DNA of 64,000 nucleotides from Haplodiscus bocki (GCA_965655095.1 OZ296649.1:105834001-105898000), one strand, 5' to 3'. Shown: positions 43,916 through 59,000, numbered from the stretch's first letter. Notes: generated by a model not told the origin, from the letters alone. Numbers and translations are program-made.

Positions 43916-44631
43916 CGGTAAAATCTGATGATATTATCACGTTCATGTTGTTCTATATTTAGGTAGCTTGTATCCAAAATCCTTTAAATTATTGCTGATC
44001 ATTAACTTCAGGCTTTGTTTTATTTATCTCATACCACTCCAAAATTTTTTGTCTCAATTTATTATATTGCTAATCGAAGTCTTCCTTAGCATCATCTGAA
44101 TTAAACCTTTCTATTATGTGATTAATTTGTGAAAGCACTGACAAAACAGCGAGTCTCTTCAATATACTCTCCTCTAGCAACAACATCAGCTTGCTGCCAT
44201 TCTATATGTTTTCTTCTTTCTTCTAATTCACCAAAAACCTGACATTTCAAACTCTTTTCAAATATCATATTAACAACTTTATTCAAACAATTGCTAATAG
44301 ATTTCACTTTCATATAAAAATAATAAAGTTAAAACAGTCAACTTTCTAAATATTTTACTCTACTAATTTTCATTTTTAATTCTATATCTAATTCTGTTAT
44401 GGTCGTACCCATTATATTTATCAATTCTTTAAGAATAACATTCTGAATCAAACAATCACACCTATTTTCGCTCGGTAATTAGAAGGTAGTCTGATATATC
44501 TATCTATCATATCATTTATTTTAATACGTATTTGAGGATCTTTTTTAATTACAATTATAAAATCATCCATTTATCTTATGTAGAAAAATGAGATCTTATA
44601 TAAATCATTCCAAGCAAACCTATTCAAAAAA

Positions 44632-44792
44632 ATGGATGGTGATAATCAAGACGCTATTTATTGTGAAGATGATAGAGAAAATAGAGTATATTGTGATACT
44701 TGTAATAATTTATGTATAGAACCATTTCATTTTAAAAAATGAAATCACAAACTCATACTAATAATAATCATAAAAGAAAATATTTCAAGTAA
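44632..44792 (+). pseudogene. Small zinc-finger protein remnant (element C)
   Basis: VYCDTCNNLC...KSQTH, a CxxC..H finger with a frameshift. Confidence 0.5.
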
Positions 44793-44809
44793 ACTTATTT
44801 TAAAAATTT

Positions 44810-53851: not shown

Positions 53852-54671
53852 CGAAATATACAGTAATCCTCCTAAGAAAAATTATTTAACTGATAAAAGA
53901 ATACATAATCATATCGAAGAAATTTAGAGTAATGACCTCCCTGATATGGTTGACTATAAAATTTCAAATAATAAAGGATTTAGATATATATTCATCATAT
54001 TAGATAAATTTAGTAATTATTTGTGGGCGGTACCACTTAAAAATAAATATAATCAGACAATAACAGATGAATTTTCAACCATTTTATCAACATCAAAACG
54101 ATCACCAGTCAAAATAGAAAGCGATAGAGGAGCTGAATTTTTCAATAGTATTTTCAGTACTTTTTAAAAAGTAAAAGTTTTCAACATTACTCTCGATTCA
54201 CAGACAAAGGACCATCAATTGCTGAAAAAGTCATTAGAACTATACGTAACTCATTAAAAAAGCCTGTGTTTTTAGTAGAAAGTGCTGACTGGTTATCTGA
54301 ATTACCATCTGTCATTATGCAATATAATAATACAGTCCACAACTCAACTATATTGACTCCCATTCAAGCTAGTAAAAAAATTGATGAAAAAGAAGTCTAT
54401 TCAAATCTTCAAGACAATAGACAAAAACAAACACCAAATTGTAAATTGGGAGATTTGGTTCGTACAGCCGATTTTAAACGAGTTTTTATCAAGAGGGATA
54501 GTACAAAAGAGTTATAAGCTCTATACAATAACTGAAGTCATACACGACACTATTCCTAGCTACAGAATTGACTATTTACCCGAGTGATATAACGAAAATC
54601 TATTACTTCCTACTACACTATCTCTAACACAAAACAACCAAGTTGTGAAAGAACTAAATTTATATCAATAA
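53817..54671 (+). pseudogene. Retroviral-like (rve) integrase (element C)
   Basis: DDE triad SNDLPDM / ESDRGAEF / IAEKVIRTIR; IILDKFSNYLWAVPLKNK; YNNTVHNST..TP; GDLVR. Confidence 0.92.
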
Positions 54672-56055
54672 AGCAAAGTTAATAAATAGAATTAACAGAA
54701 GATGAAATTGTACAAAAAATTTTTAAACATTGTGGCCATTGCAATCGAAGTACATTACTACCATACGAATATGAACGGACTTGCTTTTCATGTGGTTACA
54801 ACGTAATTAAACGAAAGCACGAACTCTCTAAAAATCAACGGAAAAAAATAAACTTTATTAATCGATTAAAGTATGCAGAATTAAAAATGTTTTGCAAATG
54901 CGTAGATGTATATAAATTGTATGAAGGTAAAGATTATGATAAAATATATGAAGTTCTGTCAAAATTTAAAAATAAAAAATTAAAAATAAACAATATCTTA
55001 ATTGAAAACTATAAAGATATGTTAGAAAATCCTGATTTCGAACAAGATTATTGGTCAAGAACAGCAATAGGTAGATATAAAATTGGACATGATTCTGTTA
55101 GATTATTGAAATGGTTAGCTTATTATGATAAGTCTTATTATGAAAAGAAAAATTATCATGATTTGATGGGAACCGTTTTAAATTGTTTAAATGAAATACC
55201 TTGATGGCCGATACTACGTTGAAGTAAAAGATTATCGATAAAAAAGTAATCCAACTGAAAAGATTTTTTTACGGAAGCGAGATCCACCAGAATTTCTCAA
55301 AACTCAATATCAAGTTCAGAATGAAACACAGACCAGGAAGAATCTGAAAGTAAACAGAAACGATAACGATCAATTAGTAGCTAAGAAACATCCCAAAAAT
55401 AAACAACCAACTCAACAACAATCAAAATTTAAACCACCAAATTGTCCTAGTTGTCAGAGAAAATAATGGTTAGAATTTGATATAGGTTACTATTGTAAGA
55501 ATTGTGAATATATTATCAACAAGCAAGAACATCAGATTGGTAAAAAAGTTCCTAAAAAAGATCATTATTTTTCCACTAGATTGCCATATACCAATGAAAA
55601 TATTTAAAAATTTAGCTGAATATGGTTAATACTACATACAATTCAACAGAAGATATGATTATTAAATTACTAGAATTAAAAGGAAAAACAAAATTGAAGT
55701 TTTATAAAAACATAAGTAATTATTATGATAATATGAATATTGGGATGGATGATGACACTTTTGCTAAAAATGCTCAAAGTATTAGTAAAATTTACCATGA
55801 AGTATTATTGTTAATTAAATTTTTACAGACTAAACCTCAGGTTAAGAATATAAAAACTAAATATTATGATTTGTATTATACTGTGAATAAAAACAGAGAT
55901 GAAAAAGAAAATGTAGATAATCAATAAGAAGATGATTATATTACTTTTAAAGATATCATTCCTAATATTTATATTGGAAGAAAAAATGATAATGTGATGT
56001 TAAGGTAGAGACTATTATCTTCCATAAATCGTTTCAAATAATTTTTACTGTATAA

Positions 56056-59000
56056 ATGAATCTGATAAATGATAACGAGAATAAAAAATTATCACGAAAT
56101 AGAAAAAGAATAATTGAACGAAAAATTATTATGGATAATAATATGAAGTTATTATTAAAGAAAATCAAATCTGAAAAGAAAAAGAAAAATGAAAGTTTTG
56201 ACAAAATTAAAGAATTAGAAATAAAATTAGTTAAAATGAAATATGCTAAAAATCCTGATAAATTAAAATCTGCTTTGAAAGCATTAAATAAAATTTAAGT
56301 TGTTCATAAAAATTTACATGAGATTAAACAAGAAATATTAGTAGAATATACTGGTCAATTTGAAAAGGTAGGGAAATAAAAAGTTGGTGATCAAATTCGT
56401 CAAACTCAATTTAGATTTAGAAATCGTACTGATTCTGAAAGTTATATCATTTCTATCGATGAAGGATATGATGCAGAAGTTGCTAATTTCAATGGTTATA
56501 TTTATTAAGTCAACACTCCATAATTTAACTTAGTTAATAGATCTCAATACGGAAATGGATGTGGTTATAAACATGAAAATATCGAATATCATGGTAATAA
56601 TTGTTTGATACCAACAAAGGGTGAAGTTTTTGTCAAATGTATTAATTATTTAACTGGTGGACATTATAAAGAGAAATGTCTAGATTTTATCCGAAATGAA
56701 AAACGACGATCAAATATTATGACTAAAGCTATAGTCCAACCATTTTCTGGAGCAAATAATATTAGTATAGGATAATTCGACGGAATAACTCTTTCCTAGA
56801 TCGGTTACGGATAGAAATAATGCTTTGTTTTTATATAATAATCATTTTTGTTTAATATGGAAATCAGAAGGTGTTAGTTTCAATCAAACTATTAAAGAAT
56901 TGAAAGATAATTTTAAAAAAAATGATAAATTCCTAACTGAAGGAAATGTTAATTCTCATTTTAAATATGAATTCATACCAAGGAAAATTGATTCACATCT
57001 GAAAAACTTTATTGTATATGACTTAGAAACACATAATACAGATAGAGCTAGACCTTATTGTATTTCATTTTATCGCTCAAGTAAAATAGCAGGTAGATAT
57101 AATCGTATTTTGACACCTGATGAAATAGATAAATGTAAAAAAGACACTTTAGTATTTGATAGAGACGATTGTATTAGTAATGCTTTAGATTTCTGTTTAA
57201 AATTAAAAGGAGAAGAACGTAAAGTTAAAAATAAAACTGTCCAATACAATCTTCAACTTCATGCTCATAATGGATCAGGTTTCGACACTTGGATTATATT
57301 AAATAAAATTCCTTGTGACAAACATAATGTTGATATTTTTAAAAATGGTAAAGGAATCATTTCTTTACGTGTTCTCAATGGTTATATGTACAATGGTAAA
57401 AAACAAATTCCTCAGTATGTAATTTTTAGATGTGGTATGACTCAGTTAAATTATTCTTTGAAGAAATTAGGAAAGACATTCAAATTACAAAAAGAATTAT
57501 TGAAAACTGATATGAATCTTGAAGAAATTGATGAAAATATTTATATGAATAACAAAAATGAATGGCTGTCTTAAGTTAAAAATGATGTTTTATGTACTGC
57601 TTTCAGTTTTGCTGGAAATACCAAAGCCATGGAAGATATTACTGGATTTTCAATGAAAGATTGTTTGTCTCTGCCATGTCTAGGATGGAAATATTTTAAC
57701 TCGTTAAGAACAGAAGAAGATGAACCTATACACACCTATAACGACAAATACATGAGATGGTTCGTTCGTCAATCGGTAAAAGGAGGACGTGTATGTGCTT
57801 TTAACCAATGTTATAAATCAAAAATTGGTGACGATATCTTAAAAATCATATCGGAAAAATTATATGTTAAACGAAATGTTTATGATATTATAGAAGTATA
57901 TTTGAATTATAAGAACAAACATTTGAAAAGTTATGAAAAAGAATATGAAAGTAAATTTAACGATTATAGAAATGAGAATATAAAAGAAAAAGAAAATTAT
58001 ATCTATGAAAAATTAAGTCAACTTCCAATACATCAATTAACAAAACAAAAAAAAATAGGTGAAGTACTGTGGGATTTCGATGCTGTAAGTTTATATCCAT
58101 CTGCTATGTGGGATAGAAAAGGTATTTATCCAGGGATTGAAACAGGTTATGCTATTATTGAAGATATGAATAATGAACTCGTAGATAAATTCAATACTGG
58201 TAATATCACACAAGGTAGTGCTATATTAAGAATAAATTTTTATAATCCAAAAAAATTTATTCGTTCAACATCTTCCTCTTAAAGAGCGTGAAAAGAAAAT
58301 TGAAGTTAATCGTACGCGAAATGGTGATATTATAGACACCTTAACATCTGTTGATATTCAAGAAATTGTTAAAATTAGAGGTAAATAATTGAGATTTACG
58401 AAAGTGTCATTTATCAAGAAAATTGTAAAGTAAGTCCATTTAAAAAAGTAATAGATAAATTAATTGCCTTAAGACAGAAATATAAAGATGAAAACAATGA
58501 AGTTTTGCAATTATTAGTAAACTTATTAATGAATAGCTTATACAGAGAGCAATTTAGAAAAGATAATGGAGTATAATTCGCTGGCAAATCAGAAGCTTGG
58601 ATGATGTGTGAATATGATGAACGATTTAAAGCTTATTGGAAAATATCAATAGTATTAAATATTGTATTAAGTATTGTATTAAGTATTAAGTATTAATTAT
58701 GTTGTTAAAATGATTGATGACGCTAGATTGGAAGATGAAGTCAAAAAATTGAACACTATGCCTCTACACTTAGGGGCTTTTGTATTATCAAACAGTAAAA
58801 GAATTATGAATAATTTCATACTCGCGATTAATGGATTTTAAACAAATGATGTTTATTATACAGATACTGATTTTTTGTATATTGAGAACAAACATTGGGA
58901 TAAATTAGATAAAGCTGGATTAGTTGGTAAAAATCTTGTACTAGGAAAAAATGATTATAAAGAAGGAGGAAAATTCTCTGGACTGTTTTTGGCAACAAAA

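Follow-up and report, generated by a model that had tools for sequence, protein, structure and literature searches.

The 64,000-nucleotide stretch of the Haplodiscus bocki genome analysed here (GCA_965655095.1, OZ296649.1:105834001-105898000; referred to below as the window, with positions counted from its first letter) contains at 43062-60388 a decayed copy, 17.3 kb long, of a Maverick/Polinton element belonging to a family in which nearly all genes start at a poxvirus-type TAAAT(G) motif. The Maverick/Polinton hallmarks are present, namely terminal inverted repeats (~0.9-1.1 kb long in the window element) and a 6-bp target-site duplication. The element core has a GC content of 27%, against 37% in the flank. 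Broken open reading frames (ORFs) match an A32-like ATPase, an rve integrase and a protein-primed DNA polymerase B (PolB), and most of the long genes are disrupted by stops and frameshifts. The features are as follows, with the start motif given where it was recorded.

43056..43061 (left) and 60389-60394 (right), no strand: 6-bp target-site duplication
43062..43975, no strand: left terminal inverted repeat; outer 422 nt 96% and inner part 85-86% complementary to the right one
59318..60388, no strand: right terminal inverted repeat
44338..44570, minus strand: U83, conserved 83-residue gene, function unassigned, broken; TAAATG start at 44570
44632..45358, plus strand: Zn-finger gene of 61 residues (Zn61) and accessory gene of 159 residues (U159), both decayed; in sibling copies of the A-rich-core, intermediate-like class
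45362..45555, plus strand: hydrophobic gene of 65 residues; TAAATG at 45362
45555..46290, plus strand: A32-like packaging ATPase, frameshifted; TAAATG start, T-tract class
46300..47140, plus strand: conserved gene of ~290 residues, function unassigned; TAAATG at 46300
47141..47927, plus strand: gene of 260 residues, probable minor capsid or penton protein (named from size and position); TAAATG
47937..48110, plus strand: basic gene of 51 residues; TAAATG
48181..49470, plus strand: double-jelly-roll major capsid protein, broken; motif lost in the window copy
49604..50000, plus strand: probable adenain-like protease; start TAAATATG
50023..51350, plus strand: fibre-like, repeat-rich gene of 400-500 residues (named in the sequence-only reading of this DNA; database match absent); start TAAATAATG
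51356..53173, plus strand: five small conserved genes (80, 72, 204, 52 and 142 residues); TAAATG at 51648 and 52747
53203..53851, plus strand: gene of ~200 residues (U200) with endonuclease VII/HNH-like matches; TAAATG, A-rich core upstream
53817..54671, plus strand: rve retroviral-type integrase, frameshifted; TAAATG
54686..56005, plus strand: two paralogous Zn-ribbon genes (173 residues, Zn173, and 277 residues); TAAATG at 55191, absent from the list of the sequence-only reading
56056..59350, plus strand: protein-primed DNA polymerase B, broken; TAAATG, A-rich core upstream

When a piece of the PolB gene was used as query against the 1.5-Gb genome, 146 matches were scored from 10,982 first-look candidates, a figure which is not a copy number. 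Fifty loci out of the at least 146 scored were examined, and the sibling set used below comprises 30 copies, 28 of them picked for a polymerase frame of at least 1000 residues, plus two close relatives. PolB matches PF03175 in the window pieces and in siblings, and the integrase matches PF00665 in both (E 7.6e-9 in the window, 1.5e-12 in a sibling). In siblings the packaging ATPase matches PF04665 (E 5e-12) and the capsid protein PF21738 (E 1.7e-12), a general double-jelly-roll-like family, while the adenain-like protease gives a weak match to PF00770 that lies below the cut-off (E 0.012). The 260-residue minor capsid candidate has no match in Pfam or the Protein Data Bank (PDB), scans of NCBIfam and PHROGs gained only endonuclease-like matches (U200) and ATPase matches, and the predicted structure of the 173-residue Zn-ribbon protein is of low confidence (predicted local distance difference test score, pLDDT, of 45). 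No large RNA-polymerase subunit is found among the element's genes, so its promoters need an outside enzyme. Beyond the host genome, scans of viral contigs confirmed no relatives, yielding one 1.5-kb polymerase fragment (L135) without a gene start.

The sequence-only reading had reported exact TAAATG at 11 predicted starts, and all 11 are present where it placed them. It had also described the protease start at 49604 and the fibre-like start at 50023 as keeping TAAAT and the capsid start at 48181 as lacking the motif, and this is how they read. All 17 full-length siblings have TAAATG at the capsid start and, judging from this alignment of copies, the missing motif is decay of the window copy. 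When full-length sibling proteins were mapped on the window, the listed sites coincided with homologous starts or lay only a few codons away, and a further TAAATG start was added at 55191. Among the plus-strand homologous starts in the window that retain an ATG, 11 of 16 are TAAATG, compared with 10 of 343 other plus-strand ATGs between 44000 and 59400 (Fisher p = 5e-12).

The enrichment check that had been proposed, of starts against background ATGs, was run on the 30 siblings. Their ORFs formed 48 clusters of at least five copies each, of which 23 were kept as genes, the start contexts being visible while this choice was made; fragments, antisense shadows, two small terminal clusters and the rpo18 gene (handled separately below) were excluded. 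For near-full-length genes, 393 of 481 starts are exactly TAAATG, and TAAAT lies within -12..+2 at 454 of 481. The background for an exact TAA is 2.8% and 14% at out-of-frame ATGs, 4.1% in antisense and 7.2% at chance ORFs in shuffled elements, and that for a nearby TAAAT is 6-16%. Genes named by homology show exact TAAATG in 25/25 (ATPase), 17/17 (capsid), 19/26 (polymerase), 11/24 (integrase) and 4/21 (protease) cases, with a nearby TAAAT in 25/26, 23/24 and 15/21 of the last three. At 20 further loci picked via rpo18, 120 of 147 starts are exact and 134 have the motif near. These controls uphold the enrichment; in-frame internal ATGs, the comparison originally proposed, are invalid as a background for the exact motif because they cannot follow TAA. 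Two further caveats had been attached to the original observation. The first, AT-richness, yields only 3-14% in composition-matched backgrounds against the 393/481 starts; the second, stop-start overlap, applies to 63 of the 481 starts, most often in three genes, where the TAA is the stop of the upstream gene; the other 418 are uncoupled.

Two other kinds of start signal were considered and rejected. The sites are not trans-splicing acceptors, since AG precedes only 6 of the 481 starts. As for a baculovirus-type TAAG, the word is depleted on the coding strand (ratio 0.73), and three window starts with TAAG overlap upstream stops or spacer. Antisense TAAATG is under-represented in the 481 sibling genes (160 observed against 235 expected from synonymous shuffles), possibly reflecting selection against spurious initiation, although other words are depleted too.

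Upstream contexts aligned on TAAAT (with a T column defined as T in at least 70% of copies) fall into two classes. In the first, T columns stand at -11, -10 and -9 in 19, 18 and 16 of the 23 families, compared with a mean of 2.5 (maximum 8) at -45..-14, and these three columns are the best conserved across copies (identity 0.79-0.83 versus ~0.4-0.6 further upstream). A T at -10 is seen in 18 of 23 families versus 27% at coding-internal TAAAT. This T-tract class precedes the structural and most other genes. The second class is marked by an A-rich core, TT-V-AA-D, beginning at -21..-19 before TAAAT and falling within -21..-14, which was counted at polymerase (24/25), Zn173 (22/22), Zn61 (18/18), U200 (16/18), U159 (12/21) and rpo18 (17/17), that is, in 6 of 24 families; no other family has it in more than 6 of 25 copies, and its rate at coding-internal TAAAT is 4.4%. 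The T at -10 is absent in Zn61, U200, U159 and rpo18 and present in polymerase and Zn173, and the last two may be dual as they carry both signals. A search that presupposed no motif found CATTT at a single distance in four families, which none of 200 shifted nulls reached. A polymerase-like upstream cassette also stands before several unrelated small ORFs (L020:3462, L016:3491 and L030:3192). The sequences suggest that the promoter cassette may double as a point of gene exchange.

These arrangements resemble those of vaccinia virus as described in the accessible text of recent accounts, in which the TAAAT(G) initiator of post-replicative promoters overlaps the start codon (PMC11980589, PMC5294985, PMC12722222), promoter cores lie ~6 and 11 nt upstream (PMC12722222), the tenth base before TAAAT is a conserved T in late promoters (PMC11980589, PMC5294985), and intermediate promoters have no such T and instead an AT-rich stretch at 15-19, then T (PMC11980589). 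The T-tract class shares both the initiator and the T at -10 with the vaccinia late class and the spacing of the A-rich core fits the description of the intermediate class, a match that was judged on review descriptions and not on a weight matrix. Here, the vaccinia-style promoters sit on an integrated 17-kb element without a large polymerase subunit.

A gene of 142-146 residues, present whole or in part in 6 of the 30 sibling stretches, matches PF03293, the poxvirus 18-kDa RNA-polymerase subunit (E values to 3.6e-20; 72.7 bits against a cut-off of 25; profile positions ~5-110 of 160). In published descriptions, as far as their accessible text goes, this subunit (Rpo18) is an Rpb7-like stalk (PMC10881513, PMC7458399). 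A profile built from 16 members of the rpo18 family found only vaccinia Rpo18 as a significant match in the PDB (E 3.2e-18; the next at 0.23), and a Pfam scan of the product found neither SHS2_Rpb7-N nor S1, only the poxvirus family being significant. The genome holds at least 150 scored rpo18 matches over the cut-off, from 456 candidates. We sampled 20 of these, 17 from the top of the list and three from the bottom; all 20 adjoin Maverick genes, and 19 of them share one position upstream of the capsid module. The median pairwise ratio of non-synonymous to synonymous substitution rates (dN/dS) of 18 intact copies is 0.23, compared with 0.12-0.17 for core genes. A search of metagenomes for rpo18 confirmed no relatives.

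The accessory slot at the left end, beside the inverted repeat, is variable among siblings (L048:8097-9145, L088:6500-7400). It holds rpo18, the 173-residue gene, with a dN/dS of 0.30, and four-helix proteins of ~90-130 residues that form a diverse family; nearly all of its genes start at TAAAT. A poxvirus Bcl-2-like or CARD origin was considered for the small accessory family, which is a four-helix bundle, and was rejected for want of a significant structural match. Two database proteins (P0245 and P0248) that join rpo18 to the accessory gene after it probably reflect read-through in decayed copies.

A Pfam polymerase search of the genome led to two further Maverick lineages, B (stretches L136-L141, L148-L153, L156-L158 and L162-L164) and C (L142-L147, L154-L155, L159-L161 and L165-L173), of which 14 stretches were compared for rpo18. 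Lineage C has a GC content of ~26%; its capsid module and integrase are related to those of the window family (capsid 22-25% and ATPase 29-34% identical), whereas its polymerase belongs to another clade, related to the classical lineage (29% over ~1100-1300 residues). Over 20 ORF clusters, 84 of 105 lineage C starts are TAAATG; four of these clusters are antisense shadows and have none. The A-rich core precedes all seven polymerase starts having TAAAT, and T at -10 precedes all five capsid starts examined for it. This result was obtained after the promoter classes had been defined and is not a fully independent test, because terminal accessory genes are shared with the window family. Lineage C thus combines a window-type capsid module and a classical-type polymerase with the same promoters, so that promoter type follows the capsid module rather than the polymerase.

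In contrast, none of 65 starts in the classical lineage B, with ~40% GC, is TAAATG. The window also holds, at 212..2425 on the plus strand, part of a classical, GC-richer Maverick (element A) with penton-, core-, capsid- and protease-like matches to lineage B, which it resembles at 23-37% protein identity. Element A had been put forward as an internal control, and the two of its starts that were checked indeed lack TAAATG. TAA precedes ATG in 0 of 29 long host and retroelement ORFs and 0 of 3 histone starts, not all of which are proven starts; the histones themselves resemble those of animals. Two other signals gave no guidance on transcription. Depletion of AATAAA was tried as a test of cytoplasmic transcription and dropped as uninformative, since the word is undepleted in the element genes (1303 observed, 1285 expected) and in retroelement and host controls too (41 against 41.5); no consistent pattern of the poxvirus early terminator T5NT was seen after stops. 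Four sequencing runs of unrecorded kind, available as contigs, yielded no information about 5' ends.

Taken together, these sequence features make it probable that this Maverick/Polinton family was transcribed by the RNA polymerase and the intermediate and late factors of a co-infecting poxvirus-like virus, and we predict that it is a satellite of that virus. The sequence-only reading had proposed transcription by a cytoplasmic large DNA virus. That inference has good support, and the initiator, the spaced upstream elements, rpo18 and the motif-free lineage B narrow the predicted helper to a poxvirus-like virus. Its description of the element as virophage-like probably holds for the mode of life; the anatomy is that of a Maverick/Polinton.

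The integrated element would rest in the host genome as a virophage-like hyperparasite until, in the helper's cytoplasmic factory, its intermediate-type promoters fired first, giving the DNA polymerase and the Rpo18 homologue, and its late-type promoters afterwards, giving capsid, ATPase, protease and integrase. In poxviruses, early transcription takes place inside incoming cores, and the transcription of naked cytoplasmic DNA falls to the intermediate factors and, after them, to the late ones. This order fits the sorting seen here, with polymerase and Rpo18 intermediate-like and the capsid module late-like. Slippage at the initiator gives 5' poly(A) leaders (PMC12722222). Initiation in the AAA of TAAAT would thus produce such leaders here, in which case a T at -3, poor as a context for host initiation, would be no handicap. 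New cells would receive the genome in particles, the integrase would insert it there with a 6-bp duplication, and the Rpo18 homologue may replace or supplement the helper's stalk subunit.

Several observations weigh against this interpretation. The core motif was defined after the data had been viewed and was revised once; U83, U159, Zn61 and U200 lack T at -10, with U83 fitting neither class; and cassettes are common to genes and lineages, such that the families are not fully independent. The negative control is affected as well, since lineage B (~40% GC) differs from the TAAATG lineages (26-27%) in composition, which is therefore confounded with lineage. The rpo18 gene is found in only 6 of the 30 polymerase-selected stretches and in none of the 14 lineage B and C stretches, and the window copy is without it. 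Pfam searches of the host genome for VLTF3, P4B, poly(A) polymerase and Rap94, run without positive controls, gave nothing, and an Rpb2 search of the genome gave four matches at two loci, the helper not among them. One of these loci (L061 and L083), a 1132-residue uninterrupted ORF, we take from its resemblance to be host Pol III, and the other is split as if by introns. No other poxvirus transcription genes were found in the scanned accessory or lineage C proteins. Finally, the nearest Atlas clusters to the Rpo18 homologue are unnamed Nucleocytoviricota (0.90-0.91), with a poxvirus cluster at rank 13 (0.86), so the donor of rpo18 could be a poxvirus relative.

With somewhat less than an even chance, the promoters served exogenous, helper-dependent ancestors and the integrated copies are dead ends, separate insertions that decay with neither reactivation nor benefit to the host. 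This contests only the idea of a dormant defence and is compatible with helper-driven transcription. The window copy itself cannot be reactivated, most of its long genes being broken, and here the earlier description of a dormant element fails. Moreover, none of the 30 copies has all 23 families at full length (11-22 per copy, although some stretches may cut the element) despite most having been picked for a long polymerase frame, and the polymerase genes of the sampled siblings share 80-94% identity, none of the pairs being near-identical. On the other side, the inverted repeats of several siblings are 99-100% identical over the aligned part, which indicates recent insertion, the coding genes are under purifying selection (dN/dS 0.12-0.30; core genes 0.12-0.17), and the copies examined come from the 50 loci mentioned above out of at least 146.

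It is improbable, by comparison, that the helper role belongs to some other cytoplasmic nucleocytovirus, an undescribed relative that is not one of the Poxviridae but has a comparable AAAT initiator and a stalk subunit resembling Rpo18; the satellite mechanism would be the same. The Atlas ranking favours such a virus, but in Pfam only the poxvirus family and in the PDB only vaccinia Rpo18 reach significance. In the accessible text of the relevant accounts, the late initiator is TATA in African swine fever virus (PMC7458399) and TCTA in Cafeteria roenbergensis virus (CroV; PMC5294985), and the -10 T and the -15..-19 core spacing are specifically vaccinia-like (PMC11980589). Least probable of all is transcription by host RNA polymerase II, with rpo18 incidental and TAAATG arising from AT-richness, stop-start coupling or an element-specific initiator served by its own Zn-ribbon proteins: the 27% GC core, the 63 stop-coupled starts and a weak match of the 277-residue protein to the TFIIB Zn-ribbon (E 0.0013) are in its favour, but it is opposed by the 3-14% backgrounds, the 418 uncoupled starts, a T at -3, which is a poor context for scanning initiation, in 83% of starts, the 0/29, 0/3 and 0/65 counts in host and retroelement ORFs, histones and lineage B, and the absence of a splice acceptor, and it leaves unexplained both the two spaced classes sorted by gene function and the selection on rpo18.

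As a Maverick that probably depends on a poxvirus-like helper, the family can be compared with several known systems. It shares with animal Mavericks/Polintons (adintoviruses) a length of 15-20 kb, terminal inverted repeats, the 6-bp duplication, protein-primed PolB, the rve integrase, the A32-like ATPase, the double-jelly-roll capsid and a probable protease, and differs from them in its 27% GC, its poxvirus-type promoters on nearly every gene and its rpo18 cargo, none of which is seen in the classical lineage B of the same genome. The accessible text of Starrett 2021 does not contain the word 'promoter' (PMC8502044), and in that of Barreat and Katzourakis 2021 virophage-like immunity is only proposed for vertebrate Mavericks (PMC8097293). 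Barth et al. 2024 proposed entomopoxvirus-associated polinton-like viruses as the first poxvirus hyperparasites; these come from moth-virus occlusion bodies, are ~12 kb long, some without integrase, and include one lineage related to maverick-polintons, with gene exchange with the poxvirus (PMC11296320). The words 'promoter', 'TAAAT', 'transcription' and 'RNA polymerase' are absent from what is accessible of that paper's main text (PMC11296320). Those viruses are known by co-packaging, whereas the window family, likened to them by description only, is known by its promoter grammar and polymerase subunit and is integrated and high-copy.

The mavirus/EMALE virophages of Cafeteria offer a further parallel in layout. 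According to the accessible accounts, they share a late promoter motif with their giant virus and have no RNA polymerase of their own, with reactivation and protection shown experimentally for mavirus relatives (PMC10945749); the Zamilon virophage likewise carries its helper's late motif (PMC11464507), and mavirus-type elements are integrated and encode protein-primed PolB and rve (PMC10328495). The window family has the same integrated layout, a late motif like that of its presumed helper, and no large RNA-polymerase subunit. Mavirus and EMALEs differ in their protist hosts, Mimiviridae helpers and other motifs (CroV TCTA), while the window family, known from genome sequence alone, has an animal host, a poxviral motif and two predicted temporal classes. 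The yeast elements pGKL1/2 are linear and protein-primed, and to our knowledge have neither capsid nor integrase; they encode their own RNA polymerase, which the window family does not. Non-templated 5' poly(A) leaders are described for these cytoplasmic elements in the accessible text of two reports (PMC6831550, PMC6211774). No literature linking Mavericks to TAAAT promoters or rpo18 was found in a search whose coverage ended short of subscription papers and supplements.

Elsewhere in the window, positions 21171-30876 hold an element resembling a long interspersed nuclear element, with endonuclease and reverse transcriptase, in a palindromic arrangement of ~9.7 kb whose arms are up to 99% complementary, and positions 34168-34950 an ORF or exon for S-adenosylhomocysteine hydrolase, with an ordinary purine-at-minus-3 start.

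The transcription of animal Mavericks and their possible virophage-like behaviour is an open question, the latter having been proposed without evidence for vertebrates, and poxvirus hyperparasites have so far been known only from co-packaging in insect viruses. The promoter grammar described here points to the type of helper and yields predictions about the order of gene expression and about 5' poly(A) leaders. A single genome offers helper-type and host-type Maverick lineages side by side. The start-context test would also be a cheap screen for helper-dependent Mavericks in further animal genomes. A broader picture, which we hold only tentatively and consider rather unlikely in full, is of hundreds or more poxvirus satellites in an animal genome that copy the helper's cascade and carry their own stalk subunit to redirect or disable its enzyme. 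They would then be a heritable defence of the host against poxviruses, and a poxvirus still to be discovered would be implied. If a satellite does bring along a subunit of the RNA polymerase of its helper, this would represent a new way to seize viral transcription.

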